Below, in pieces: positions 1,039 to 21,678 of a stretch of 24,433 bases of DNA. Every line of letters begins with the position of its first letter. The stretch's first letter is position 1. Below the pieces are notes generated by a model. That model was not told the DNA's origin. It saw only the letters and a list, made by a program, of their open reading frames with translations, and searched no databases. Made by a program: the position numbers and the translations under genes. Where the stretch lies: positions 324,606-349,038 of the forward strand of contig ML996709.1 of assembly GCA_010356995.1 (NCBI GenBank), given 5' to 3'. This DNA comes from Trichodelitschia bisporula. Lineage: Eukaryota.

Positions 1039-2133
1039 ATGTGTCGCTGGTTTGCCTACATATCGCCAGAGGAGCCATGTCTCCTCAGCGACGTCCTCAT
1101 CGATCCCGCCAACTCCATCTCCAAGCAATGCTCCGAGCACTACCTTCCCAAGCTGCTGCCTCACGGCGAGGAAAAGGACCTGGACGACTCGAAAGACAAG
1201 CTGATCAGGATGCGCAACAGCCTGCTGAACATGGATGGGCTGGGTATCGCCTGGTGAGCCACATGCAAAGCCCACCCGACCGCGCTGACCACCAGGTTCA
1301 CCGACGCTGCGCAGGATTATATGCGGGACGTGAAGGGCCCCCGACCGGCTCTTTACAAGTCGCAGTCGCCCCCGATCAACGACTTCAACTTCCGCAGCCT
1401 CTGCATGAACACCGAGACCAAGTGTCTGTTCGCCCATATCCGTGCCTCGTCCGGCTCCGTCGTGACGCAGGTCAATAGCCATCCGTTCGTCTTCGGCCGC
1501 CATGTCTTCATGCATAACGGCGTCATCAGCAACTTCACCGACATACGTCGGGAGCTGCTGCGCGATATCAGCTACGATGCCTTTGCCAACATCTTTGGGA
1601 GTACCGATTCGGAGCACGCTGCAGCGCTGTACATGACCCATCTGACCGGGCACGGGAACCGGGAGTCATGGCAGCGCGAGTACACACTGGACGAGATGCT
1701 GAAGGCAATGATGAAGACGGTTGTCCAGATACTGGAACTGCAGCGCAAAGTGCTAGGCGACCGTGCGACTCCCAGCAGCCTCAATTTCTGCACCACCGAC
1801 GGCCGCCGCATGTTGGCCATCCGCTTCCGCAACCACGCCACGCAGCAGCCGCCCAGCCTGTACTGGAGTGAGTTCGCCGGCCGCACGCTGAACCACAAAT
1901 ATCCGGGGCACGCCGACGGACCGGGCTTGGTTAACGAGCAGGCCATCATGGGTGAGGAGGAGCGCATCGGCCGCCACACCATCATTGCGAGCGAGCCCAC
2001 GACGTACGACGAGAAGGAGTGGCATTTGATCAAACGCAACTGCGCGCTGACCGTGGACGAGTTTGGGACGGAGACGGAGGTGCCACTGACGTATGATGAA
2101 CGGTTGAACGCGGTGGACCGGGGCGATCCCTAA
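1039..2133 (+). CDS. Class II (Ntn) glutamine amidotransferase, DUG3-like; join(1039..1253,1296..2133)
   Basis: Starts MCRWFAY, with the N-terminal catalytic Cys typical of Ntn hydrolases. Motifs NMDGLGIAW, FAHIRAS, NSHPF, FMHNG, GSTDSEH and IIASEP are present. A 42-nt intron (GTGAGC...GCTGAC...CAG, 1254-1295) joins the two ORFs in frame (IAW-FTDAAQDYM). Confidence 0.92.
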
Positions 2134-2668: not shown

Positions 2669-3251
2669 TTAAGCGGAGGGCCCCATGGTCACGATCGGGC
2701 CCCATTCATCAAAGGAAGAAAGTACAAGCGTCGACGAGCTGGACGGCGAGGGCTTTTTGGCCGTTGAAAAAGTGACAGGCGTGGCCTTGGTGACCGGCGC
2801 GGCCCTCGTCTGGCTTTGGAACGAAGTGGCAATCACCTGCAGAGTGGACGTCGGCTGGGCAGCAGGGGCAGCTATGTTCCGCGTCAGCAACACGCACTAG
2901 CATCAATAGACTCTTTGACTGTGCATACCGCAGAGCTCGCCGTAGTACCAGTCGAGAACCTTGTCCTGCACGTCTCGGCCGCAACCTTGGATACTGCAGT
3001 CGCGGATGCCGAACTGGAAGTTCGGCTTCTCGCAGAGGCATGATGCTTGGGCGTCCGGGCAGCCCATACGGCTCTTGGCCTGGCGGACGAGGTCTTTGAT
3101 GCAGGATTGCTGGGGAAGGGTCAGCGGGTGTTGCCCGAGTCTCGTGTGCACTTACGCCGCAGGCGGGGATGGAGGCTGGGATTGGAGGGTCGGCGGCGAC
3201 CAGCTGGACGGCTGCCAGCAGAGCAGTGACGGTGGCGAGGAGAAGCTTCAT
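2669..3251 (-). CDS. Secreted CFEM-domain protein (~159 aa) with Ser/Thr/Pro-rich tail; complement(join(2669..2871,2929..3109,3156..3251))
   Basis: Signal peptide MKLLLATVTALLAAVQLVAA. After splicing, 8 Cys fall in CFEM spacing (PACG-QSCI...GC...SCLC...IRDCSIQGC...ELC). Introns 3110-3155 (GTAAGT..GCTGAC..CAG) and 2872-2928 (GTATGC..GCTGAC..TAG) restore the frame. Confidence 0.88.
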
Positions 3252-3266
3252 GATGCAAAGTGTTGG

Positions 3267-3364: not shown

Positions 3365-4586
3365 AAGCTGTTGCGGATGATGATGTACCGTTGAGGCTTC
3401 CGGAACGTCAAGATATAAGTTTCTTGCTCTGCAGTGGAGACTCCATGTTGTTCACTTGATCGTCTAAGTTCTGGCGCGGTGCTTGCGCACTGGGATCATT
3501 TCTGGCCCCCAAGTTCAACTCTCGAGCCCCCAAAGTATTTTCGAATTTGGGCTTCGCAATTCGTTTTTGGCCACATTCCCTCAACCCCAACGTGCTTCTG
3601 CGCATGGGTGGTGAGAGTACAACATATCAACGATAACGCGTGAGGCAGAATATTTTCGGCATATGTGCTGAAGGATTCGAGTGCTTGTCGAGCCGTTAGA
3701 GTATCCGCCAGATATCAGCGTTGCGCGTCAACCCTACGAAAGCGATATGGGAAGCCAGCACATCTTATCAAAACATCAGCCTTAGAGTGATCAGGATTCG
3801 GGAAGTTCTTGGCTATAAGGATGAAGGATCACAGGGGCATTGGGTCCGCGTTAAGATAAGCTTCGGAGCTCGAGGCAAGACCAGTCAAGCTCGTCAATCA
3901 TCTTACTGCATCCAGGACTGACTGCCGCTGTCGAACAATCGGGATTAACAACATGGATGAGCGCCTCGGGCCGGAGCATAGGATTGGACTCGCAATTTTC
4001 TGCTCGTCCCTGAATCCTACTCATTCGAGAAGGGTTCGCTGCCCGCCGTTCTCTGCCTGAAGGATTTCTGGAAGATTTTTGGAAGCTGGAAGGGGGCTAG
4101 AACTGAAAACGCGACTGGAAGAGCAGTCGCAGGCTCAGCAGAGCTACCAGCGGTAGAAGGCGAATGTTGTCGAGGGCTTTTGAGGGGCAAGGGATCAACT
4201 GCCGGACTTGGGAACGAGTGATCGGCATGTACAGGGTAAGGTACTGAAACAGGACGGATTGTGCCAGCTTGCCAGCCCTGACAGCATTTGCAACAGCCTT
4301 GCAACGGAGCTCCGAGGGGATGGCATCTTCAATTGATGGAAACAGACAATGGTGAACTCACGTTTCCAACAGACGCAGGCAACCTGTATCCATCGCTTTG
4401 AGTTGAGATGCGTTGCATGTTTCAGCAACAGGACACTCGAAGTACCTGCGAATTTATACTAGACGCACATGAGAAATCACATGTTGCAAGGCTGACCACG
4501 GTCGCTTTGAGGGAAGAGAAAACTCGATTTATGCTGGCGCTTGTAGCACTAACTGATAACTGGAGGGAACCCAAAATGCAGAAGGC

Positions 4587-5652
4587 TCATTTAATAGAAC
4601 ATGCGCCAATCGAGGCCTCGGTCGCCTGGACAGCCGTCATAACTCTTTGATGAGTTATGGTTGCTGGGGACTTCTCGAAATCCACTTCGAAAGTGCTTAG
4701 GGCATTTCGCAGGTTCTCCCGTTTCTCGCGCGTCTCTTTCTCTACCGCTGTCTCTTTGGCCTTCGTGGGAATTTTAGGCAACGAGTCCAAGAGCGCCTTC
4801 ATGTCCACAACTCTATGAGTAAGTGGACCTATTGGCCTTTCCACCATTGGTACTGCAACTCTCTCTCCCGCCTTGTTAAGGATACTTTTCAGTTCCGAAT
4901 TCACTGTTTTGGCGTAACTGTCCGCCCACCGGTTGGAGTGAACATACTCCAGGGCCTGCTTCGCGCGGTCCAAATCCTTAGAGAGAGCTGCTGGGTCCGA
5001 GGCCTTTGCCATGGATTGAGTGATGGTCTTTCCCGATTCCGTGAAGGAATCCATCCAGGCTTGGGCGCCCGCGTCGGTTAATTTACCGGCACCCGGGTCG
5101 ACCTTAACATTGGAGTTGATTCGTTTGTAATCTGCCGTCGTTGGAACCTTCGTGTTCGAGAACTTGACTCCCGAGTTTGCTTCGACCGAGGGATCGAAAG
5201 TCACCAAAGTCGCATGGTTCCAGCTGACCGGCATTCCCTTCGCCGCGCGACGCGCGGCCCGCCCGGCCCCCCCAACGTGCACCGGCTTCCCAGCCGCAGC
5301 TGCGGCTATCGCAGCGGCTTTCTTCGCCTCGGCCTCCGCGGCCCGCTCCTCAGGAGTGGGGGGCGGGGGTCGGGCAACTATGTCACCGGTCGTCACGAAT
5401 TGGACGAACTCGCCGAAATCCGCCATCCGTTTAAGACTGTCGGAGAGACCAGGTGCCATTGTCATTTCGACACCTCCAGTCACCTGTCGAGTCAGCGTTT
5501 GAAGTCACGCAAAGGGGGAAAATTACCTGGTACTCAATCTTGTAGGCGTAGTAGAAGAAGGTCATTTCGTATCCAAAAGCGCTATTTGAGAGTGCCCGGC
5601 CCAAGGCCGGCACCACCGCCATGCACAGCGCAAGGAGTACCAGAAGCTTCAT
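4587..5652 (-). CDS. Secreted protein of unknown function (340 aa), divergent partner of the GH55 gene; complement(join(4587..5483,5527..5652))
   Basis: Signal peptide MKLLVLLALCMAVVPALG. A 43-nt phase-0 intron (5484-5526, GTAATT..GCTGAC..CAG) joins ...YYAYKIEYQ to the 298-aa ORF VTGGVEMTMAPG... The protein ends ...IGACSIK. Confidence 0.85.
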
Positions 5653-6449
5653 GGTGCCGTGCAGCAAATGAGTGAGCCAAAACTACCAGAAACCGACAGA
5701 AAGGAATGATGTTCGACAGAAGTGACGGTGGAGGTGATGGTGGGCCGGCCGGGTATACGACATCTAATGGCCTTCAGCCGAACGGGAGTTTCTAGCCGAA
5801 TATACAGCCCTAATGGCAGGATGAGGGCGTACCTGCAGGATTATCGGCTGGGACCCAGGGGGCCGGATCCAGCGAAGGTAGATGGAAGGAATCCTTCGGG
5901 TAGATGCGCCAATCTAAATTCAGCCTCGCCAAAGAGATCAAGTCCACTTGGCGCAGTGCTTAACATGGCGACAATTGCGTGTCCATGAGCGACGTATGGA
6001 AGTCGACAAACCCTGGCCTCAAATTTTTGATTCACCGCTAAGGCTAAAATAGTTCGTCGGGATGCAGGTCGAGAACTCTGAAATTTCGAATCTAAATGCC
6101 AACCGGGAATGCGATCCTTCGGCGGTCTGGCCCTCACCGTTGCACCCACTGTGCGGGCCGTCGGTATGCACACAGACGAAAGATTGGGTCGAAAGATTGC
6201 CTGATAACAAAATATGCTAAGCTGGGACAACCACAATGAGCTTGATTGCGCTGAACATGAGGGATGTCGTATGCGCTCAATATCGACTCATCCGCATCCC
6301 AGCGAGGGAGTGGGGTCCGCTGGTTCCAGCAGCCATGGTTATCAACTACCCTTCTATTTGACTTGTAGTCCATTCAGCTTGAGGTTTTTGCATTCCGTTG
6401 TCATTCATTCGCTTTTTACGCCGTGAAAGCAGCACACCTCATTGCCATC
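5653..6449. promoter_or_regulatory. Probable shared bidirectional promoter (~800 bp)
   Basis: Lies between the head-to-head ATGs at 5652 (-) and 6450 (+) and contains no convincing coding sequence. Confidence 0.6.
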
Positions 6450-9400
6450 ATGCTTTTCCACCAAGCGCGGAGGGGCTCAAGCTCCCCGCTGCTCACTTTG
6501 GCCATTTGGCTCATGTGCCTTCCAGAGCAATGTTTTGGAAGCTACATGTTTGTGGGGCCTCCGGGCGCTCCGGTAGCCCATGATATGAACAGTGCAGCTG
6601 AGGGGATTGCGGAGTTTGCGAGCATGAACGGCTCTACAGCTGACGCGAGTGGCATCGGCGCGGGCTCGCGGAGCTGGAATGCCTCAGAGCCGCCGTGGCA
6701 CAGTCGATATCGAAATCTGTCTGCAGAAGCGGCCACCAACTTCTCATCATCCGACGTTGAGGGAGGACCGCCTGTTTTGAGGTATTGGTTCCTGACCGAC
6801 CCTAGCTTCAAGCATCAGGTAAGCGAATCCAGGCGCGCAGTACTGAGCTGACCACGCAGCAACCTTATGCGGGGGAGAATCCCTATGTCGCCTTTCGTAA
6901 CGTCAAGTCCTATGGTGCAAAGGGCGATGGCGTCAGTGACGATTCTGATGCAATCAACAATGCTGTCAGGGCCAGCAATAGGTGCGGAGAGGGTTGCAGT
7001 GCAACCTCAACCAAGGGCGCTATTGTGTACTTTCCGCCCGGCACATATGTGGTGAAAAAGCCGATCATTCAGTACTACTACACTTCTTTTATTGGCAATC
7101 CCGAGCCGGGTCTGCGGCCGGTTATCAAGGGCCACAAGGAATTCGAAGGCATTGCGCTGATTGACACGGACGTCTACATTGAGCAGGGCAATGGCGCAAC
7201 ATGGTAGGTCTCCCGCTGTGCACCCCTGACGAAGCTGACGATATAGGTGGATCAACCAGAACAACTTTTACCGCCAGATCCGCAACTTCGTCATTGACCT
7301 GACCGATATGCCTAATTATGTCAAAAAAGGTCCTAAAGACCGATTGCCGGTCGGGATTCATTGGCAAGTCTCGCAAGCCTGCACGATGCAGAACGTCCAC
7401 TTCGCCATGCCAGTGGCCGCGGAGGGTGGCGAGGTCCGGCATACCGGCATTTACATGGAAAACGGCAGTGGAGGTGTGTTGAAATCCGTGACATTGCGCT
7501 TGCGATTTTGCCCGGAGCGGGACTCACTCAAGCAGGTTTTGTGAGCGACCTCACATTCTTGGGCGGGCGCGTCGGTTTCATGGCTGGGAATCAACAATAT
7601 ACCGGGCGCAACTTGCGCTTCAAGGGATGCCAGTAAGTCTAGCGTGATTATCTTTGAACGAGTAGCGCTGACAGACAGAACGGCAATCGAAATGATTTGG
7701 GACTGGGGTTTCAGCTGGAAGAGCCTGTCTGTCGTCGATTGCAAGATAGGTATCAATGCAACAGGTGTTGCGCAAGAGGGCGGTGGTAAAGCGCAAGGAA
7801 CAGCGGTAAGTGCTACATCCGCACGCTAGACTGAGCTGACCGCCAGTCTCTTACTCTGATGGACTCGGTATTCCAAAACGTCGACCAGGTTCTTCTCACA
7901 GCCCAGGTGCCTAATTACAAGCCCAATATTGTTCTGGACAACGTGAAACTGCAGGGAAACATCGGAACCGTGGTGTCAGACGGCGAGAGCGTGCTCCTGG
8001 GGCATGAGGGAGACACCGTCGAGTCCTGGGCAATTGGCAACCGGTTTACAAAGGACGAGGAGACGGGGAACAACCGCGTCGGTCCGATGGAGCCGCCCCG
8101 CAAAGACCCAAGCCTACTCACAGCCGGAGGCAAGTTCTTTGAACGTGAGAAGCCGCAATATAACAACTTGCCGGCGGGGTCCTTCTTCAACATCCTTGAC
8201 TTTAACGTGCGCAACGACGGCGTGTATCCCAACCAGAACGCTGTAGGCATCAACCGGGCGCTGAAGCTAGCGGCCGGTCAGAATAAGGTGGTCGTATTTC
8301 CGGCGGGGGTCTACAAGGTTGACGATACAATTTTTATTCCGCCGGGCAGCCGGATCGTCGGGGTGCTGTGGTCGCAACTCATGGCAGTGGGCGAGGCGTT
8401 CCAGAGCGAAGTCGACCTCAAGGTGCTAGCAAAGTACGTTGAGGTGTTGAGCACGAAATGACGCAGCTGACATGTATAGGGTCGGTAACCCCGGCGACAA
8501 AGGCGTAATTGAAATTTCTGACATGATGTTCACCGGCTCTGGACCTACCCGCGGCGCCATCTTCATGGAGTGGAACATCAAGGAGTCCCATCAGGGGTCT
8601 GCTGCAATGTGGGACACCATTTTCCGCGTCGGTGGTGCCCAAGGAACGGACCTGCTCGAAAAGCAGTGTCACCAGTTCCAGTTGACAATCATGGACGAGT
8701 GAGTCGGCCGAAGGAGAACGGGGGAGCGCGGCCACTAACTCTTGCAGCTGCATGGCATCGAGCATGATGCTCCACGTCACAAAGGAGGCCTCGATATACA
8801 TGGAGAATATGTGGCTCTGGGTTGCCGGTAAGCTTTCGTTGAAAGGGTTCGACGAGCAACGCTGAGTAGCAGACCACGACATCGAGTCCAAGAACCAGCA
8901 GCGCATCAACGTGTATGGCGGTCGCGGCGTGCTGATCGAGTCACAAGGGCCGTCATGGGTGCACAGCGTGAGCAACGAACATTCCACCCTATACAATTGT
9001 AAGCTTCCGACATCTCATTCTGGGACCGGCTGACGGACAGGGCAACTTGCGGGGGCAAAAAACATTTACCTTGGGGCCATACAATCGGAGACGCCGTATT
9101 TTCAGGCGGGCCAGACCGACTCGCTGGAGCCGTACGACCCGTACATCCAATTCCCCGAGGATCCGGACTTTCTCGACTGCCCAACCAACTCTACCGCACT
9201 CGACACCTGCCGCGAGGCATGGGCACTGCGCATTATTGACAGCCGAAACGTGTATCTCTACGGCGGCGGCTTCTACAGCTTCTTCCAAAATTACAACGAC
9301 CGCTGCGCAACGCGGCCTGGTATTTGCCAGGACCGGCTGGTCGACACGGACCGGTCTGAGAACGTCTGGATGTACAATCTTTACACCGTCGGTGCCAAGG

Positions 9401-10772
9401 AGGTTATCAGTCCACAGAGGTATGTTGACTGGTTTACTTATGCGACGCGTGCTGACGAGGCAGCTTCACCGCCATCGAACGCGCAGGCCAAGTGAACGGC
9501 TTCTCGACGGCGACGTCCGCCTGGCTCGTCCTCGCGGACCAGGGTGGCAAGAGGGGCGGAAGGATGCCCCTCGACGCAGGTGGAGATGACAATCAGTTTG
9601 ATGCTAGCAAAGTACCACCCATTTGCGATTGGAACCTACAATTTGCCAGTCTTGAAGCTCTGGAAAAGGCCAAGGACGGTTTTCCGCAGTTCTGTGCAGT
9701 GGTGTACTCGCTCATCGTCCTGCACAAAGAGCTCGACAAAGCGGTAACTGGGTATCGCAAGGAGCAGAAGGATTATGACGCTAAGTTCAAATATTACGAA
9801 CACCTGTTCCGCGAAAACTTGGATGAAGCGTGGCGGGTGTTCATAACCTACCCGCGGGGTGAGTGAGCGGTGACGGCTATGGCGACAGGCTGACCCTCTC
9901 TAGGCAAGGGCCTGGAACATCTCCTCTGCAATGACCCTAAAGGTTGGGTCAGCTGCAGTAAAACGCCATTGTTTAACAGTGGAGTGTGGGATGACACTAC
10001 CGTCACTTACAAACTGGACGACCGTGCTGGTTTCTTCCAAGCGCTTATGAACGCCACCGGCATACCGGAAGACTGGATTGAATTCGGCACGGTTGTGACA
10101 AACATGCAAATCGTGGAAGAGGTGGGCACGGGCAAAAGCATTAGCACAAAGTTTGCGCTCACCGAAATAAACCGCCCCAAACTTAAGGACAACTGGCAAG
10201 TGCCAAACCCGAAGGTTGTATTCGACAGCATGGACGTAACGAACTTGCAGAATGCGATACTAGCGGCCATTTTCGATATCAAGACAGGCATGTACGTGGG
10301 CGACGCCGCCGATGTCGCCGAGGTACTGTCCCTGCCGACGTTGATGGCCATTGAGGCGTTCGATGCAATGCACAAAGTGAAGGAAACCGCAGAGAAGGCG
10401 GAAAAGGAAGAGAAGAAGGAAAAGCTGCTGATGATTTTGACTATAGTCTTTCTGGTCGTCCCACTGGCAGGGGAGGCCGGCGCGACGTTCATGGGCTTCT
10501 CGACAATTGCAAAGATCTTTTCCGGCGCCGGCATTGCGGCGGGCGTAGGACTCACGGCGTTGGACGGCGTAGAGAATCCGGATGCGGTGCCCTTTGACAT
10601 TGTGGTCGGTGTCGTAACTTTTGGCATAGGCCGTGCGGTGGAGAAGGGCGTGGACATTTCGAAGATGGCGCGCAACCGGCGTTTGTTTATGGCGGCAGCG
10701 ACGGGGCTACCGGGGGGCCTGAAGACACGAGACGCGGTACTGATGAATATCCTCCGGGCGTGTCGGAAGTAG
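6450..10772 (+). CDS. Secreted GH55 exo-beta-1,3-glucanase fused to a ~390-aa hydrophobic C-terminal module (~1272 aa, 12 exons): join(6450..6818,6860..7203,7247..7473,7536..7632,7679..7805,7847..8433,8480..8698,8748..8827,8873..8998,9041..9419,9464..9858,9904..10772)
   Basis: GH55 motifs after splicing: FRNVKSYGAKGDGVSDD, VYFPPGTY, NQNNFYRQIRNF, GIHWQVSQA, GIYMENGSGG, WDWGFSW, VVFPAGVY, MWDTIFRVGG, YMENMWLWVADHD, YGGRGVLIES and catalytic-region IQSETPYFQ. All 11 introns are GT..AG with branch sites and give one continuous 3819-nt frame. Confidence 0.92.
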
Positions 10773-11632
10773 GCGAAAGCGGTGATATGGGATGGTGATG
10801 GGAGGTAGGGTAGATGGAGAACAGCATGGCGAAGAAGGGTTCCAAATGCCTGATCCGAAAGAGATGTGTGAAGGCTGAGGTCAATGCAATAGGCGTCAGA
10901 AGCCGTCTACACGGGAGGGGGGCGGAGTCGTTGGAGTGTGTTAGACATGTGGGAGTGTGGTGCAGGAATCAACGAAGCCGCGATGTTCTCTCCAGCATTC
11001 CGCTCACGTGCTTCGCGCCCCACATTTCAGCTCATCAATGAGCAACGTTCAAGAGGCATTGCCGCCCGGCATGCGTGCTAGAACTAGTTTTGGTAGCATG
11101 ATATCGAAGCCCCCTACAGCCTTCATTACATCAGACGTCAGGAATCGCAGCGCGCCAACACGCGCTGATGCGCATGGGCGGTTCCTCATATAGGTAAACA
11201 GCAACTCGCCTGCATTTGACGCATTTCATCTCCGCTGCAGCGGTCGCGTCGCGTCCCTCGACAGCTTTCCCCATCGACATCCGACTTCAGCTTCTCCCGC
11301 ACAATATCTTTATCAGCCATGGCACTGCGGCGAAACTCCCATCTCCTGTGGACCTCCACCCGCCATCTGTATTCAGATTCACCGCAATATCGGTGGATTG
11401 CCGTTTCCTTGGCTCGATAGCACTCTCACCCGCGGCGTCACCATCGGTCAAATCCTGCAATATGCTGTCACAACCGAGCCCATCAGCATAATCCTCAGCA
11501 TGCCGAGACTCGCGCCGCAATATAGAAATCCACGTCGATTGACCATATGGCGTGCTCCACTGGATTTCTCCGTCCGCATATAAGTATGGCTCGCGCGATC
11601 AGGTGGACGCGTGAACCAACTGTCGTTTCACA

Positions 11633-13273
11633 ATGCTTTTCGCTGTTGCTTTCATCGCGTGTGCACTGGCCTCTGCCGCACCCGTCGAGGATGCCGAGGC
11701 AGCTTGGCCGCAGTCCGCTTTGCCATACTGGCGCAAGCCTTTCGTGAGCTCGGTGAGTGCGTCCCGCGAGGTCACGGCTCCGCTGACCGTCCAGTTTGCT
11801 CTGCAGGGACGCATCCGGACCAGTGCGCTTGTCGCTGGCGCGAAAACACTCGAGACCATTGCATACTCAACCCCAGCGCGCAATCGCCTCATGGGCACCA
11901 AAGGGCACAACGACACCGTCACCTACCTGTACAACCAGCTGACGGCCCTCAATTACTACAACGTGACGCTGCAGCCGTGGCAGGGGTTGATCCAGCTGAG
12001 CGGAACCGCCGCCCTCTTCGTTAACACATGGAACATCTCGACGATCGTGGCGCAGTTTTCACCAAGCGGCAACATCTCGGCGCCGCTCACGGCTGTCGCA
12101 AACTTGGGCTGCAATGCGGTACGTAGTGGATCGCACCCACGTGGCGACGCCGCTGACCGATAGACCGACTATCCGCCGGCAGTGCGCGGCAACATTGCCC
12201 TCGTTTCACGCGGCAGCTGTACCTTTGCTTCCAAATCGGCGCTCGCCGGCGCTGCCGGTGCCCAGGGAGCTGTGATATACAACAACATCCCGGGCGGCAT
12301 TCCAGGTATGACCTTGGGTACAGAGCCGTCGCCGTTTGGCCCGACCGTACCCACGCTTGGAATCTCGCGCGAGAATGGAACCGACCTCGTCAGCCGTCTG
12401 GCTTCCGGCCCGGTGGTCGGCAACCTGTACGTCAAGACCGACATTGCGAACGCCACAACCTACAACGTACTTGCCGAGACTGAGCATGGCGATGATGAGA
12501 ACGTACTGGTTCTTGGCGCCCACAGTGACTCCGTCGACGCCGGCCCTGGCATCAACGACAATGGCAGCGGCTCCATTGGAATTCTGGAGGTGGCAAAGCA
12601 GCTTGCGGCGTTTCGTGTACGCAACTCTGTACGCTTTGCGTGGTGGTCCGGCGAGGAGGAGGGCCTGCTCGGGTCGACGTACTACGTCGAGCATCTGTCT
12701 GAAGAGGAACGCGCCAAGATCCGATTGTACCTCAACTTTGACATGATTGCCAGCCCCAATTACATCTACGGCATCTTTGACGGCGACGGCAGCAGTTTCA
12801 ACCAATCGGGCCCGACCGGCTCCGCCGACATTCAGAGCTTTTTTCAGCGCTTCTTCAAGTGGCGGCGCCTCAACCACACCGCCATTCCCTTCAATGGTCG
12901 GTCCGACTACGCGCCCTTCACCGCGGCGGGTATCCCAGCGGGTGGTATTGAGACCGGCGCCGAGGAGATCAAAACACCGGCGCAGGCTGCGCAGTTCGGC
13001 GGGCAGGCCGGCATTGCACTCGACGCGAACTACCACGGCCCCGGAGACAATTTTACGAATCTGGCGTTGGTTCCGTTCACTGTTAACGCCCGCGCAATTG
13101 CCCACGGCGTAGCAACGTTTGCGCGCAGCTTTGCCGGTATCCACTTCAATACGACGGATGATGACGATGACGATGACGAGAAGCGCCGGCACGTACGACG
13201 TACGCCGGTCATCAACTACGGTGGGCGGATTGCGCGCGCGCGAGATGTACCGGCTCGACAGTATGTAGTGTAG
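11633..13273 (+). CDS. Secreted/vacuolar M28 aminopeptidase with PA domain (aminopeptidase Y/Lap2-like, ~531 aa); join(11633..12118,12164..13273)
   Basis: Signal peptide MLFAVAFIACALASA. PA domain GNIALVSRGSCTFASK...GAVIYNN. Zn-ligand motifs GAHSDSV, GINDNGSG, WWSGEEEGLLGS, LNFDMIASPNY and NYHGPGD. A 45-nt intron lies at 12119-12163 (GTACGT..GCTGAC..TAG). Confidence 0.93.
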
Positions 13274-15675: not shown

Positions 15676-18600
15676 ATGGTACGTATTCCCCTTCGCTACG
15701 ACTGCCCTTGCTCCTTAAGGCCAATGTATGCCGTTTTCACTCCCATTTGTGGTGCAGTTGTATTCACTGTATCTGAGCTCTTTCCACCATTGCTTTTGGT
15801 CCTTACTAACTGTGCTCAAGAGAAAATTTCGGAACATACTAAAGCCTAAAGCTGGCAAGAAACGCGATCAAGCCAGTGACGGGACCGAGTCTGGCGCAGC
15901 TGATAATCATGTTGTACTCCGTCCCTCCGTCGGCCAGCCCTCCACCGAACCCAGCGAGCAGCGCCTGCCACCGCCATCTTCGAGTCTCGGCACCGTAAGC
16001 CGTGAGGCCGCAGATCCCGAACCGCTACCATGTTTGCTGGATCTGACCCTCATCGCGCGGCCAAGTGGTACTCCCGCTGTGGATATCATATTCGTCCACG
16101 GACTCGGTGGATCAAGCCATGCAACCTGGGCCAAAGAGCGCAAACCGGAACTCTTCTGGCCAGGTAAATGGCTTCCATATGAGTCGGGTATGGAAAAGGC
16201 TAGGATTTTTACCTACGGATACAACGCGAATTGGTCGTCGACCGAATCCAACGTCCTGAACATTGGGGATTTCGCCATGGACTTATTAGGCCTGATGGAG
16301 TTTATGCGAGATCCTGTAACGCGCGAAAGCCTCAAAATTGGGACTGTTCCTATCATGTTTGTCGCCCACTCGATGGGAGGGTTGGTTGTGAAGAGGGCGT
16401 ATCTCAATGCCCTGAACAACCCAAGATTCCGCCAAATCGGTACCGCTGTCAGGTCCATGATTTTTCTGTCGACCCCTCATACCGGTGCTGACTCGGCCTC
16501 ATCGCTCAAAAACCTCATGTCAGTGTCTTTCTTCATCTCAGAGAAGCAGTTTGTCAACAGCCTGCAACGAAACTCGGAGACCTTGGAAACCATCAACCAA
16601 GATTTCCGCCACTTTACGCACAAGCTTTTTATTGCATCTTTCTACGAGACTCGGGAGACGCCCATTTTTCCTCACCTCGGCCACATAAATCCGACCAAGG
16701 TTCGGGTTGTGGAGAAAGATTCCAGTAGGCTTATGTGGCCCGGAGTAGTCCACATGTCATTGGATGCCGACCACCATGGTGTCTGCAAATACACCAGCAG
16801 GCAAGATCCCAATTACGGGAAGGTCCTAAACATGATCCTCGAGGCAGTACAGGCCAATGACGTAAGCCCCTAAATTCGTTGCAACGTCGAATACTTACTT
16901 GGCCCGGTTGCTTGAAAATGGTCTTCGGCAGTCGGACGAGCCTCGACTAGCCATTTATGGCTCATCCAAAGGTACCCATTGCGTCTATGTTACTTTGCAG
17001 CCTGACTAACGCCTAAGATTGTGCCCCCAAAGTTACCCATCACATTCCCTTTCCGTCAAACGACGGCTTCGTCGGGAGGAGCGCCGAGCTCGCGCAGGTT
17101 CAAGACCTCTTCGCAGACAAAACCAACCGAATGTTGGCAATTCACGGCCTCGGCGGCACTGGGAAGACGCAAATCGCCTTGCAGTTCGCTTACTGGGTGA
17201 AAAAGAATCATCCTCAGTGCTCTGTATTTTGGGTTTCCGCTGTGAGCGCGGCAACCTTTACTCAAGACTGCTCCCGTATCGCAAGGGAGTTGTCGATCCC
17301 TTCAGAGAACGAAAAGGACAAGGACGTGAAGGAGTTGGTGAAGGAGTACCTAAGTGGCGAAATGGCAGGGCCCTGGCTTTTGATTGTTGATAACGTCGAC
17401 GACGCGAATATCTTTTCTCTATCCGCCGATCCGTCCATGCATATTGCCTATTTTCTTCCGAAAAGCGCGAACGGCTTTATCCTTTGCACAACACGTCTAA
17501 GGCAAATTGCAGAGGACCTGGGGCGTGAGAGAACCATTCCACTGGGTGAAATGAGCAAGAGAGACTCGCTTGACTTTTTGGCAAATTCCTTGCTTGACAA
17601 AGCCTTGCTTTCCAACCCTTTGATCACGGACGAGCTCTTGACTGAACTGGCATTCCTCCCTTTGGCGATCGCACAAGCAGCAGCCTACCTCAACAGAAAC
17701 AAGCTGCCCATTTCCGAATATTTGGATCTCCTGAGGAATACCCACGAAGACATGTCCGAGCTTATGAGCGCCGAGTTCACCGACCTTACACGACCCCAGA
17801 GCACTTCGAACGCCATTGCAAACACATGGATACTGTCGTTCGAAAAAATTCGTCAGACGGATCAAACTGCCGCCGATCTCCTCGCCTTCGTGTCTTACGT
17901 CGAGCCAAAGGCGATTCCTAGGTCGATCCTGCCTCCAGTGCCGACGAAAACACGCTTGGTGAGCGCCATTGGTACCCTTCTTGGATACGCTTTCTTCACC
18001 AAACGGGACGATAACATGTACGACATGCACAGACTCGTGCAAAAGGCAACCAAGATTTGGCTTGACAAGCATCCCNNNNNNNNNNNNNNNNNNNNNNNNN
18101 NNNNNNNNNNNNNNNNNNNNNNNNNNNNNNNNNNNNNNNNNNNNNNNNNNNNNNNNNNNNNNNNNNNNNNNNNNNNNNNNNNNNNNNNNNNNNNNNNNNN
18201 NNNNNNNNNNNNNNNNNNNNNNNNNNNNNNNNNNNNNNNNNNNNNNNNNNNNNNNNNNNNNNNNNNNNNNNNNNNNNNNNNNNNNNNNNNNNNNNNNNNN
18301 NNNNNNNNNNNNNNNNNNNNNNNNNNNNNNNNNNNNNNNNNNNNNNNNNNNNNNNNNNNNNNNNNNNNNNNNNNNNNNNNNNNNNNNNNNNNNNNNNNNN
18401 NNNNNNNNNNNNNNNNNNNNNNNNNNNNNNNNNNNNNNNNNNNNNNNNNNNNNNNNNNNNNNNNNNNNNNNNNNNNNNNNNNNNNNNNNNNNNNNNNNNN
18501 NNNNNNNNNNNNNNNNNNNNNNNNNNNNNNNNNNNNNNNNNNNNNNNNNNNNNNNNNNNNNNNNNNNNNNNNNNNNNNNNNNNNNNNNNNNNNNNNNNNN

Positions 18601-19430
18601 NNNNNNNNNNNNNNNNNNNNNNNNNNNNNNNNNNNNNNNNNNNNNNNNNNNNNNNNNNNNNNNNNNNNNNNNNNNNNNNNNNNNNNNNNNNNNNNNNNNN
18701 NNNNNNNNNNNNNNNNNNNNNNNNNNNNNNNNNNNNNNNNNNNNNNNNNNNNNNNNNNNNNNNNNNNNNNNNNNNNNNNNNNNNNNNNNNNNNNNNNNNN
18801 NNNNNNNNNNNNNNNNNNNNNNNNNNTGCAATCCGATCGCAAGTGCTACGGGAAGATCATTCACACCGTCTATCATCGCAGCACGAACTCGCGCGCGCAT
18901 ACCTTGAAGACGGGCGAATAGGCGAGGCGATCGAGGTTTTCGAGCGCGTCGTTGCAATCGAATCGAAAGTGCTACGGGAAGATGATCCAAGCCGTCTAGC
19001 ATCGCAGCACGAACTTGCGAGCGCATACCTTGACGACGGGCGAATAGGCGAGGCGATCGAGCTATTCGAGCGCATCGTTGCAATCCGATCGAAAGTGCTA
19101 CGGGAAGACCATTCAGACCGTCTAACATCGCAGCACGCACTTGCGAGCGCATACCTTGCAGACGGGCGAATAGGCGAGGCGATCAAGCTTTTCGCGCAAG
19201 TCGTTGCAATCGAATCGAAAGTGCTACGGGAAGATGATCCAAGCCGTCTATTATCGCAGCACGTACTCGCCACTGCATACTTCAAGGACGGCCGGGTTGA
19301 TGAAGCGATCGAATTGATGGACCACGTTGTCTCGATACGACGAACGTCCCTTCCAAGCGGTCACCATGATCGAGAGCGGTCAGAAGCGTGGCTCGCCCAT
19401 ATGCGCTCAGGAGCCGGCATCACTACATAG
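15676..19430 (+). CDS. Fungal NLR (STAND): SesB-like alpha/beta hydrolase, NB-ARC, TPR repeats; join(15676..15678,15821..16861,16932..16971,17018..gap..19430)
   Basis: Hydrolase motifs IIFVHGLGG, IFTYGYNA, FVAHSMGGLVVK, FLSTPHTG and DADHHGVCKY. NB-ARC motifs FVGR, P-loop GLGGTGKTQIA, Walker B WLLIVDNVDD, LCTTR, FLPLAIAQAAAY and YDMHRLVQ. TPRs follow the gap. Introns 15679-15820, 16862-16931 and 16972-17017 join the domains in frame through a 40-nt exon. Continuity across the 751-N gap is assumed. Confidence 0.85.
18827..19345 (+). repeat. 126-bp (42-aa) TPR-coding tandem repeats with high internal conservation, about 4 copies visible
   Basis: Units begin TGCAATC at 18827, 18953, 19079 and 19205. 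Consensus LREDxxxRLxSQHxLAxAYLxDGRIGEAIxxFxxVVAIxSKV. Confidence 0.93.
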
Positions 19431-19650: not shown

Positions 19651-20341
19651 NNNNNNNNNNNNNNNNNNNNNNNNNNNNNNNNNNNNNNNNNNNNNNNNNN
19701 NNNNNNNNNNNNNNNNNNNNNNNNNNNNNNNNNNNNNNNNNNNNNNNNNNNNNNNNNNNNNNNNNNNNNNNNNNNNNNNNNNNNNNNNNNNNNNNNNNNN
19801 NNNNNNNNNNNNNNNNNNNNNNNNNNNNNNNNNNNNNNNNNNNNNNNNNNNNNNNNNNNNNNNNNNNNNNNNNNNNNNNNNNNNNNNNNNNNNNNNNNNN
19901 NNNNNNNNNNNNNNNNNNNNNNNNNNNNNNNNNNNNNNNNNNNNNNNNNNNNNNNNNNNNNNNNNNNNNNNNNNNNNNNNNNNNNNNNNNNNNNNNNNNN
20001 NNNNNNNNNNNNNNNNNNNNNNNNNNNNNNNNNNNNNNNNNNNNNNNNNNNNNNNNNNNNNNNNNNNNNNNNNNNNNNNNNNNNNNNNNNNNNNNNNNNN
20101 NNNNNNNNNNNNNNNNNNNNNNNNNNNNNNNNNNNNNNNNNNNNNNNNNNNNNNNNNNNNNNNNNNNNNNNNNNNNNNNNNNNNNNNNNNNNNNNNNNNN
20201 NNNNNNNNNNNNNNNNNNNNNNNNNNNNNNNNNNNNNNNNNNNNNNNNNNNNNNNNNNNNNNNNNNNNNNNNNNNNNNNNNNNNNNNNNNNNNNNNNNNN
20301 NNNNNCGTATACATCACCACACAAGCCAGCGCAACGAACGC

Positions 20342-21678
20342 TCATTTTAACTCTCCAAGTCCCGCTACCTCCTCCCCCAAATCCGGAAAAAGCTTTCTCC
20401 TCATCCATCTCCTCCTCCCCCGCTCCTCCTCCCACCCCACCTGCTGCCCCCCCCGCATCCGGCGCACTCTGCGCATGATCACAACCAAAAAAAAGTCTCC
20501 TTGCAATAAACCACATTCTCCCCATACACCCACTCCCCACCCCCCCCAGAATGCCCATCCTCCGCAAGATCTCTAACACCTACATTCTCTCGCTACGGCT
20601 GCAGCATGGAGGGCTGAACCGTCGTTTCATCAGCCAGCAGGTAATCGCACCACTCCGCCTCTAGCGTGCCGGCGAAGCCCATGAAGGACATTTGAGTCGG
20701 CGCCGGGCGCGCCGCGAAGACTTCGTTGCGCGCGCCCCGCCTGTATCCGTTTGGGTTGACGAGGATGTGGATACCGTCGGCCACGATTTGCGCGACGAGC
20801 TGCTCGACGGGCCAGAGCGTCGCGTCGCGGAATACGGGCGCCTCGCGCTCGATTCCGCGCGCGGTGCACGGAGCCGTCGCTCGCGGTTGTCGCATAGCAG
20901 AACGCGCGTACGCGGGTCGGGTCGTGCAGGCCGAAGTCAGATTGCATGAGGTGCGCTAACGGGTGGTTATTAAAATCGCTGCTCATGTAGCCGACGTTGA
21001 GGTGTGGGGCGCGGGGCGGGGGGCGGGGGCGGGCGGTGCACGGTCGGTGGGAGCCAGAGGGATTTGAGCGCGGAGGTTGAGATGCGCAGACCGTTGCGCT
21101 GCCAGAAAGACCGGAATTGCGCTGTGAGATAGACCGGACTTGCGCGGCGGACATTGGGGCGGTGAAGGTGTGGAACGGCAGCACGGTAGGCGCGGGCGGA
21201 GCGGCGAGGCTAGCCGGCAGTTGGGGGCGCGTGTACGCAGACAGCGGGCGCTGACGGGGCCGCACGTACAAGTCCTGATACCACTGCCAGACGAGGCGCT
21301 TAACGATGCGCTCCACCAGCCTTACCACGCGCGCGCCCTCCCACTTGCGCCCCGCCTAGGTGCGCAGCATATCAACCACGAACTTCTCCAGGCCCTTCCT
21401 CTCGCCGTCCTCAGCGATAACGGGTAGCGTGCGCGCGATCTGCTCCACCAGCGCGGAGTTGATGCATTCGATCCCCCACTCCTCGCCGTCGGCCAGCTGC
21501 TTCCGGACGAGGTCGACGACGCGCTTGATCCACCCGCTGCTCTGCGCGCCGGGCTGCAGGCTGTCAACTAGTCCGCTGGCTTCGTCGACGTGCCAGCGGT
21601 CGCGCTTGCCGTCGGGGGTTGCGATGCCGCCTCTGCCCTTCCAGTTACACACGCTGTTACGCGCGTTGGCGAGCCCGC
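20342..21678 (-). pseudogene. ogt: Decayed fragment of UDP-GlcNAc:protein O-GlcNAc transferase (GT41) catalytic region
   Basis: Motifs GLANA.NSVCNWKGRGG, PTVLPFHTFT, VGYMSSDFNNHPLAHLMQS, DGIHILVN.NGY.RGARNEVFAARPAP.QMSFMGFAGTL.AEWCDYLLAD, WVYGENVVY.KETFF..DHAQSAPD and MRRKLFPDL. In-frame TAG stops occur at ~21356 and ~20593, plus several frameshifts. The 5' end is cut exactly by the LTR at 21679. Confidence 0.88.

Follow-up and report, generated by a model that had tools for sequence, protein, structure and literature searches.

On nuclear DNA of Trichodelitschia bisporula (Dothideomycetes, Phaeotrichales) we identified two divergent genes, here called A and B, whose predicted products have the layout of a secreted three-chain killer toxin. 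The window, the whole stretch of DNA that was analysed, comprises 24,433 nucleotides of contig ML996709.1 (assembly GCA_010356995.1, positions 324,606 to 349,038 of the forward strand). Gene A is read as a beta-1,3-glucanase of glycoside hydrolase family 55 (GH55) fused to a C-terminal module, and gene B as a secreted-looking protein with a single mature cysteine close to its end. The assignment of the module to a fungal family that also ends killer-toxin-like chitinases, together with its conserved and probably unpaired terminal cysteine, is well supported, and we hold it with high confidence. That the locus encodes a working chromosomal killer toxin of the zymocin type (alpha/beta plus gamma), with a GH55 exo-beta-1,3-glucanase and not a GH18 chitinase as its alpha part, is a reading to which we give an even chance, and on a cargo role for B we find our judgement evenly divided.

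On this reading, a Kex2-type protease would cut at KR881-882 in the secretory pathway, giving a GH55 chain of ~94 kDa and a hydrophobic chain of ~43 kDa (the beta chain of zymocin is likewise hydrophobic). Cys1270 of the module would be linked through a disulfide to Cys337 of B (~34 kDa, basic and secreted), and, in the wall of a fungal or oomycete competitor, the complex would dock on beta-1,3-glucan or open it. The hydrophobic module may then help B across the membrane, and B would act inside the cell, possibly as a nuclease on tRNA or rRNA, a suggestion taken from analogy with zymocin and not from the sequence of B. The properties of B that fit a gamma chain are generic ones: it adjoins A, looks secreted, is basic, carries a single cysteine near its C-terminus and has no relatives, an absence typical of the gamma-toxin class.

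The GH55 glucanase and its C-terminal module

Gene A begins with MLFHQARRGSSSPLLTLAIWLMCLPEQCFG, which resembles a signal peptide (a basic n-region, the hydrophobic LLTLAIWLMCL and then ...CFG); the signal peptides of both genes were judged by eye. PF12708 was matched in two separate exons (E 1e-32 at 6860-7201 and 1e-07 at 7847-8431), the PDB chains matching A include the GH55 enzymes 5m5z (E 2e-39) and 3eqn (E 2.6e-33), and ten GH55-type homologues align to the window along 6860-9420. The glutamate of the SEH motif, which we take to be the catalytic acid, Glu633 of Lam55A, is conserved within 8875-8997 (...VSNEHSTLYN, compared with TASEH in 3eqn and SSEHS in 5m5z). With two PF12708 beta-helices and this glutamate, A resembles the free-standing GH55 enzymes (Phanerochaete Lam55A, 3eqn; 5m5z), but the solved enzymes, of ~757 residues, stop once the second beta-helix is complete, whereas A adds a further module of 390 residues. 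No GH18, LysM or Chitin_bind_1 domain was found in gene A by Pfam and PDB sequence searches, and A is, as judged from its sequence, not itself a member of the C-II chitinase family.

The two parts of A, both with an isoelectric point (pI) of 5.2-5.4, meet at a glycine-rich linker that contains the sole Lys-Arg (KR) of the protein beyond the signal region. An earlier reading, made from the sequence only, had described A as GH55, a KR site in GGKRGGR and a module of ~390 residues with hydrophobic segments, five cysteines and the ending ...ILRACRK*, and this description proved correct throughout.

We found the module to be widespread. An exhaustive HMMER search with exon 12 of A (288 aa) against 1.84 billion representative proteins identified 447 relatives at E<=1e-3 and 206 at E<=1e-10, and in nearly all of the best 150 of these 447 it is the C-terminus, or a region close to it, that matches. 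Among the matches listed of at least 600 aa (n=37), 16 carry GH18, nine GH71 and four PF12708 (the GH55 type), and eight are without a Pfam match, three of which are GH55 by tblastn to the window. LysM and/or Chitin_bind_1 is also present in 12 of the 16 GH18 carriers, which is the 'killer-toxin-like' architecture of chitinase subgroup C-II. Those listed of 400-599 aa (n=51) include 11 GH18 fragments and six more proteins of the GH55 type (tblastn). Annotated GH55-module fusions occur in Colletotrichum chrysophilum, Myriangium duriaei, Arthrobotrys entomopaga and Orbilia ellipsospora, and shorter models combining the C-terminal part of GH55 with the module in Claviceps maximensis, Acrodontium crateriforme and Lecanicillium saksenae. 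Proteins of the GH55 type that end in the module include KAF2153724.1, XP_053041241.1, KAF3908275.1, KAK6523242.1, KAG6009923.1, WPH01347.1 and KAJ3497840.1. Among named long relatives, the one closest to the module is a GH18 protein from Periconia macrospinosa (35% identity over 91% of the query). The fusion of the module to GH18 and GH71 as well as GH55, considered in the sequence-only reading, is thus borne out by HMMER and by the Pfam domains of the long relatives, and on sequence the module is a fungal family common to GH18 enzymes of LysM/CBM18 architecture, GH71 enzymes and GH55 enzymes.

The copy of Pfam that we searched holds no model for the module. In the ESM Atlas, the module groups at scores of 0.97 and 0.96 with clusters from Ascomycota, in which 55% and 19% of members, respectively, carry PF26794 'LysM11_ab' (Pfam 38.1). 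One relative (P0131, 1003 aa) combines GH18, an internal module and a major facilitator superfamily (MFS) transporter in one model, and is probably the product of two neighbouring genes merged by the predictor.

For 51 modules whose partner domain is known we built a quick maximum-likelihood tree, using a short search and a midpoint root and obtaining many weak forks. The GH18, GH71 and GH55 labels interleave on this tree, requiring 11 label changes against a minimum of two, and the branches with a Shimodaira-Hasegawa-like approximate likelihood ratio test (SH-aLRT) value of at least 95 force at least four changes for GH55, four for GH18 and two for GH71. This interleaving indicates that the module has been re-coupled to its partners repeatedly, in an order of events that the tree does not give. 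On the same tree P0008, a GH55-type fragment from a metagenome, forms a pair with the module of gene A (support 99).

In the module, a cysteine-paired N-terminal part is accompanied by an alpha/beta subdomain and long helices, a hydrophobic stretch rich in Gly and Ala, and helices at the C-terminus. AlphaFold2 (AF2), run on exon 12 with 107 aligned sequences, gave a mean predicted local distance difference test score (pLDDT) of 76. The model shows a confidently placed alpha/beta subdomain together with long helices, and its two C-terminal helices run up to the cysteine; the only part below a pLDDT of 50 is the Gly/Ala-rich hydrophobic stretch (exon 12 residues 171-230). No solved structure resembling this model was retrieved by Foldseek (best E 0.15) or by VIA-align, whose best Z of 6.0 fell on generic helical bundles.

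The five cysteines of the module lie at residues 906, 929, 992, 1001 and 1270, and the last of them is conserved among homologues. Its column is invariant in all 39 rows of a first alignment, and in 107 aligned rows it holds cysteine 97 times, a gap eight times and serine twice. A cysteine lies within the last 12 residues of 132 of the 150 matches listed, and most of the others stop short of the module end. The cysteine count from the linker to the end is odd in all 14 GH55-type proteins (5, 7, 9 or 15), and the count from the first conserved cysteine is odd in 56 of 64 fully covered rows, these being related sequences and not independent trials. The number of cysteines thus varies and its parity does not, as would be expected if all but one paired internally; since the count is odd, the terminal cysteine is probably left unpaired within the module.

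The same features could be read without a toxin. In that case A would be a GH55 enzyme serving the fungus's own wall remodelling or nutrition, with the module as a membrane anchor or regulatory tail and B as an unrelated orphan; the hydrophobic stretch would be a transmembrane segment, and the terminal cysteine, set beside basic residues, for example an acylation site. Such an account fits the hydropathy of the stretch, with one strong Kyte-Doolittle peak (2.23 at residues 1163-1174, 19-aa window) and two weaker ones (about residues 1194-1197 and about 1220), as well as the lysine or arginine that follows the terminal cysteine in most homologues. The fold searches above gave no match that would lend the module a toxin function, and B is without supporting homology or expression. 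We nevertheless consider a self-directed enzyme unlikely: the same module ends LysM/CBM18-GH18 chitinases, which pair with secreted toxins ending in a cysteine (bioRxiv 10.1101/2024.10.25.620242, available part), the odd cysteine count fits an unpaired cysteine in a lumenal or extracellular setting, and a secreted-looking neighbour with one mature cysteine near its end should be rare by chance (by a rough, uncomputed guess, well under 1/100).

Transcripts of gene A and the case for gene B as cargo

Several observations count against the toxin reading, and they begin with the transcripts of gene A. We used RNA contigs from two public runs (X1 and X2) of one sample under one condition; both runs represent RNA, as the contigs over the locus are spliced. 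Introns 1-9 of A are confirmed in the contigs exactly as predicted, with intron 7 spliced only in X2, and the 5' untranslated region of A reaches to at least 6164, since an RNA contig covers 6164-6589. In the main X1 contig, intron 7 (8699-8747) is retained. Splicing of introns 10 and 11 was not seen in the contigs, which run unbroken over 9041-9935 or 9041-9687, and if intron 10 is retained the GH55 protein would end at a stop near 9493. Moreover, the dominant RNA over 9660-10900 (depth 21-23) is without 9937-10010, a joint that reads as a minus-strand intron, indicating that a spliced transcript runs antisense over the stretch coding for the module; its contigs end near 10945. This antisense transcript begins in the gap between gene A and a downstream M28 peptidase gene; its longest open reading frame (ORF) has 227 aa, is of low complexity and rich in Ser/Thr/Pro/Ala, and shadows the frame of the module. 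Exon 12 is contained in no deposited protein, the best match among 1.84 billion representatives having 37% identity and no self match appearing among the longer proteins, and the module is therefore unannotated in T. bisporula.

From these transcripts one might argue that the module is not made together with GH55 in T. bisporula. Intron 10 would be kept, the module frame would either have become a relic in recent times or belong to an alternative isoform repressed by the antisense transcript, and the pairing of A with B would not be functional now. The unspliced contigs of both runs, the minus-strand intron in the dominant RNA and the lack of exon 12 in protein models all speak for this possibility, yet minor isoforms are lost from contigs, and a single sample and condition lies behind both runs. 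Both module exons are open and score best in the sense frame: under a codon model of coding against off-frame sequence, trained on the RNA-confirmed exons, exon 12 reaches a log-likelihood ratio per codon of 0.24 and exon 11 one of 0.18, both the best of their six frames, while antisense frames reach at most 0.04. Exons 11 and 12 together keep all the near-invariant residues of the module family, the terminal cysteine included, and are bounded by canonical introns of 44 and 45 nt with CTGAC branch sites. We regard the loss of the fusion as rather unlikely.

Homologues support the fused reading of gene A. In ten of 13 GH55-type homologues the alignment follows frame 1 to about 9417 and then frame 3 from about 9471 to the stop, with a gap across intron 10 of a few residues in the closest ones (3 in P0039). 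Removal of the 44-nt intron 10 is indicated because the homologues read from the end of GH55 straight into the module in exactly that way, and the junction at intron 11 aligns with homologues without insertion. We read gene A as a predicted GH55-module fusion, its introns 10 and 11 resting on homology and canonical splice signals. Alternative splicing of intron 10 could choose between a free GH55 and the GH55-module fusion, and the antisense transcript may regulate the fused isoform.

The remaining adverse points concern the processing and ancestry of A, immunity, and gene B. The KR site is aligned as GGTR or GGKR in the closest homologues only, the distant GH55-type ones being without it. A profile search among the longer proteins gave no match to the yeast plasmid alpha/beta carriers, candidates being crowded out, and no candidate immunity gene was recognised in Pfam scans of other ORFs of the window. 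As for B, its reading frame is the best of six by a small measure (0.04-0.08 per codon, compared with 0.24 for the module), it contains an Ala/Pro-rich low-complexity stretch, and it has internal dibasic sites (three KR and one RR) that a Kex2-type protease might cut. The first glutamate, Glu29, would fall at mature position 11 (cleavage after ...PALG) or 9 (after ...LGRA), the cleavage sites being guesses, and not at position 8, where most published gamma candidates have one. Known gamma subunits have ~230 aa, and mature B, at ~320 aa, is larger. RNA contigs are blank over 4400-5484 (exon 2 of B), which says nothing on its expression. The word-seeded search for relatives, made over 5.8 billion protein clusters without an exhaustive HMMER run, returned only the NCBI model of B itself, PDB sequences gave a best E of 0.19, and a single-sequence AF2 model with a pLDDT of 44 was unusable, making a fold comparison with known gamma-toxins impossible.

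B nonetheless has the appearance of a secreted protein. Its N-terminus, MKLLVLLALCMAVVPALG, is hydrophobic (Kyte-Doolittle 2.33), its cysteines are confined to residue 10, in the signal region, and residue 337, and the mature protein would have ~34.5 kDa, a pI of about 9.1 and no N-glycosylation sites. The sequence-only reading had called B a 340-aa orphan with its sole mature cysteine in ...IGACSIK*; the length and the cysteine hold in our script-built model, and its orphan status was upheld by the cluster search, Pfam, NCBIfam, PDB and the ESM Atlas. Pfam and NCBIfam gave no match for B, and its best score in the ESM Atlas was 0.84, offering no lead. NCBI annotates the same protein as EJ06DRAFT_525068 save for 45 residues removed there as a predicted intron (4813-4947). 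This stretch on the minus strand, of 135 nt, is in frame and stop-free (GTATGT...CATAG) and has a codon score of -0.15 against 0.06-0.08 in its flanks; as it may or may not be an intron, B has either 340 or 295 aa. As an intron of 135 nt, it would exceed the other 12 introns of the locus two- to threefold in length. A prediction of the complex between exon 12 and exon 2 of B scored 0.00 in two runs in which the alignment was not used and the fold of B was uncertain, and is evidence neither way.

The module might instead carry a disulfide-linked partner other than B, or B might be that partner and no toxin, in which case the true cargo would be encoded elsewhere and B would be a chaperone, another effector or a mis-called ORF. 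C-II chitinases lacking an adjacent toxin gene do exist (bioRxiv 10.1101/2024.10.25.620242, available part), the codon signal of B is weak and part of the protein is of low complexity, and a stop-free run of at least 305 codons, the length of the B ORF, arose in two of 100 mononucleotide shuffles of the window. Set against this, the frame of B is still the best of six, its signal peptide lies on a separate exon joined by a canonical 43-nt intron, NCBI annotated the gene independently, and its single terminal cysteine matches the unpaired cysteine of the module. We think it very unlikely that the cargo lies elsewhere.

A bolder view goes beyond the toxin reading. The module would be a general and portable delivery platform in filamentous fungi, re-coupled several times to GH18 (chitin), GH71 (alpha-1,3-glucan) and GH55 (beta-1,3-glucan), so that the targeting of a disulfide-linked cargo could be swapped; B would represent a new toxin class unrelated to anticodon nucleases, and the splicing of intron 10 together with the antisense transcript would switch between the fused carrier and a plain GH55. 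Taken as a whole, we find this combination distinctly unlikely.

Gene models and genomic setting

The models of genes A and B were built by script from the window sequence (Table 1). Their head-to-head arrangement about 800 bp apart, noted in the sequence-only reading, is reproduced, with 797 bp between the two start codons.

Table 1. Positions of features of the A-B locus in the window
Feature	Position	Strand	Details
Gene A	6450-10772	+	Script model; 11 introns, 1272 aa; ATG at 6450, stop at 10770-10772
Gene A, introns 1-6	6819-6859, 7204-7246, 7474-7535, 7633-7678, 7806-7846, 8434-8479	+	GT..AG, RNA-confirmed
Gene A, introns 7-9	8699-8747, 8828-8872, 8999-9040	+	GT..AG, RNA-confirmed
Gene A, introns 10-11	9420-9463, 9859-9903	+	Predicted; homologues read straight across
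GH55 beta-1,3-glucanase catalytic region	6860..9419	+	Two beta-helix domains; Pfam, PDB, SEH motif
Lys881-Arg882, candidate Kex2-type site	9549..9554	+	Gly-rich linker QGGKRGGRM at the GH55/module border
C-terminal module	9555..10772	+	390 aa, beta-like; 447 representative relatives, alignments, AF2
Hydrophobic stretch, about residues 1154-1230	10413..10643	+	LLMILTIVFLVVPLAGEAG...GAGIAAGVGLTAL...IVVGVVTFGIG; Kyte-Doolittle peaks
Cys1270 codon	10761..10763	+	...RACRK*; 3 residues from the end of the module
Antisense intron	9937-10010	-	74 nt; GTAAGT...CTGAC...TTTAG; CT..AC joint in both runs, depth 23 and 21
Weaker antisense intron	8989-9038	-	50 nt; GTCCGT...TATAG; X2 only, depth 2.7, 29 letters on the shorter side
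Divergent intergenic region	5653..6449	.	797 bp between the head-to-head start codons of A and B
Gene B	5652-4587	-	Script model; ATG at 5652-5650, stop at 4587-4589; one 43-nt intron, 340 aa
Gene B, exon 1	5527-5652	-	Putative signal peptide
Gene B, intron	5484-5526	-	
Gene B, exon 2	4587-5483	-	Includes the stop
Cys337 codon of B	4599..4601	-	...IGACSIK*; sole mature Cys, 4 residues from the C-terminus

All 12 introns modelled for the two genes are unusually short, at 41-62 nt, with nine of 41-46 nt, and most of them have the branch-site motif CTGAC (in one case CTAAC) near the 3' end.

Pfam scans of the other window ORFs recognised only GATase, CFEM, M28 peptidase, DUF676, NB-ARC and GT41. 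Downstream of gene B, at about 2700-3260 on the minus strand, lies a gene encoding a small secreted protein with a CFEM domain (E 2e-10) and the signal peptide MKLLLATVTALLAAVQLVAA, split by at least one intron. Gene A is followed, 860 bp downstream, by a peptidase gene (11633-13273, plus strand) whose product looks secreted and carries PA and M28 domains. Further along, a NOD-like receptor (NLR)-like gene (15719-19430, plus strand) combines a DUF676/PGAP1 lipase-like N-terminus with NB-ARC and then repeated TPR-like units, and is interrupted by runs of N at 18076-18826 (751 bases) and 19651-20305 (655 bases). Flanking fragments encode a class-II glutamine amidotransferase (1258-2133, plus strand) and a GT41 protein (O-GlcNAc-transferase-like; 20633-21355, minus strand). 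For the genomic context of homologues we scanned metagenome contigs with P0126 and A4, and found no relative.

Relation to known toxin systems

It was only in 2024 that zymocin-like toxins encoded in the nucleus of filamentous fungi were reported, tied to C-II chitinases, by Heneghan, Salzberg and Wolfe (bioRxiv 10.1101/2024.10.25.620242); what follows is drawn from the available part of that preprint. Their clusters in Pezizomycotina pair a C-II chitinase, the alpha/beta homologue, with a gene for a secreted gamma-toxin. A terminal cysteine is present in 29 of 31 C-II chitinases beside a gamma gene and is treated as the disulfide partner, and the C-termini of Pezizomycotina and yeast carriers are aligned in Figure S3. 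The gamma candidates evolve rapidly and form nine groups without sequence relation to one another. Of 50 candidates, 45 carry a C-terminal cysteine and 46 a glutamate at mature position 8; yeast growth was stopped by two of the three that were tested. C-II chitinases without an adjacent toxin gene are also noted, the immunity gene is often absent from Pezizomycotina clusters, and no cluster is reported, in that part of the text, from Dothideomycetes or Leotiomycetes (bioRxiv 10.1101/2024.10.25.620242).

Our literature searches on GH55, killer toxins and C-II chitinases or zymocin in filamentous fungi found no GH55-based killer-toxin locus. The terms 'GH55' and 'glucanase' have no occurrence in PMC13348850 and PMC13556262, and GH55 is not mentioned in the available part of bioRxiv 10.1101/2024.10.25.620242. 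The locus would be the first of the zymocin-like kind to be based on GH55 and the first in Dothideomycetes. If the toxin reading is true, the system is not bound to chitin and may be aimed at beta-1,3-glucan, possibly that of oomycetes or of fungi with masked chitin, and such loci are placed in a class from which none had been reported. The GH55, GH71 and GH18 fusions and the interleaved tree would then point to a modular carrier with an exchangeable targeting domain, which would offer a handle for finding new fungal toxins, namely to look beside any gene that ends in this module. The locus may also hold candidate antifungal proteins for biocontrol research, of a value that depends on B being cargo.

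Zymocin of Kluyveromyces lactis (pGKL1), like the predicted product of gene A, starts from a secreted precursor in which a wall-polysaccharide hydrolase precedes a C-terminal part with a cysteine near its end, with a dibasic site between the two, and its gamma chain, like the secreted-looking B, is separately encoded, secreted and basic, with a cysteine close to its C-terminal end (PMC11848437, PMC13442484, available parts). The two systems differ in that zymocin has a LysM/CBM18/GH18 chitinase and resides on a cytoplasmic linear plasmid, whereas here we find GH55 and nuclear, intron-rich genes; in contrast to zymocin, no immunity gene was recognised at this locus, and B has no similarity to any gamma-toxin.

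The locus probably works like, and belongs with, the nuclear zymocin-like clusters. These too consist of nuclear genes with introns, in which a hydrolase with a terminal cysteine stands beside a fast-evolving secreted protein with a C-terminal cysteine, and the module of A is the one found on LysM + Chitin_bind_1 + GH18 proteins, the architecture of the carriers in those clusters. The cluster chitinases are, in the available part of the preprint, all GH18 of subgroup C-II, whereas the carrier here is GH55 and the host is a member of the Dothideomycetes; B falls in none of the groups that could be compared. The proposal of the sequence-only reading that a glucanase stands 'instead of a chitinase' describes the locus correctly, with GH55 present and no GH18, and is less new than first thought, because non-chitinase carriers are already in print: one GH71 locus (Aspergillus flavus) and one xylanase locus (Xylaria arbuscula) lie beside a putative toxin gene (bioRxiv 10.1101/2024.10.25.620242, available part). 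GH71-module fusions are common in our own data (nine of the 37 long matches listed). Like the A. flavus and X. arbuscula loci, the T. bisporula locus places a wall hydrolase that is not a chitinase beside a candidate toxin gene, and the hydrolase here is GH55.

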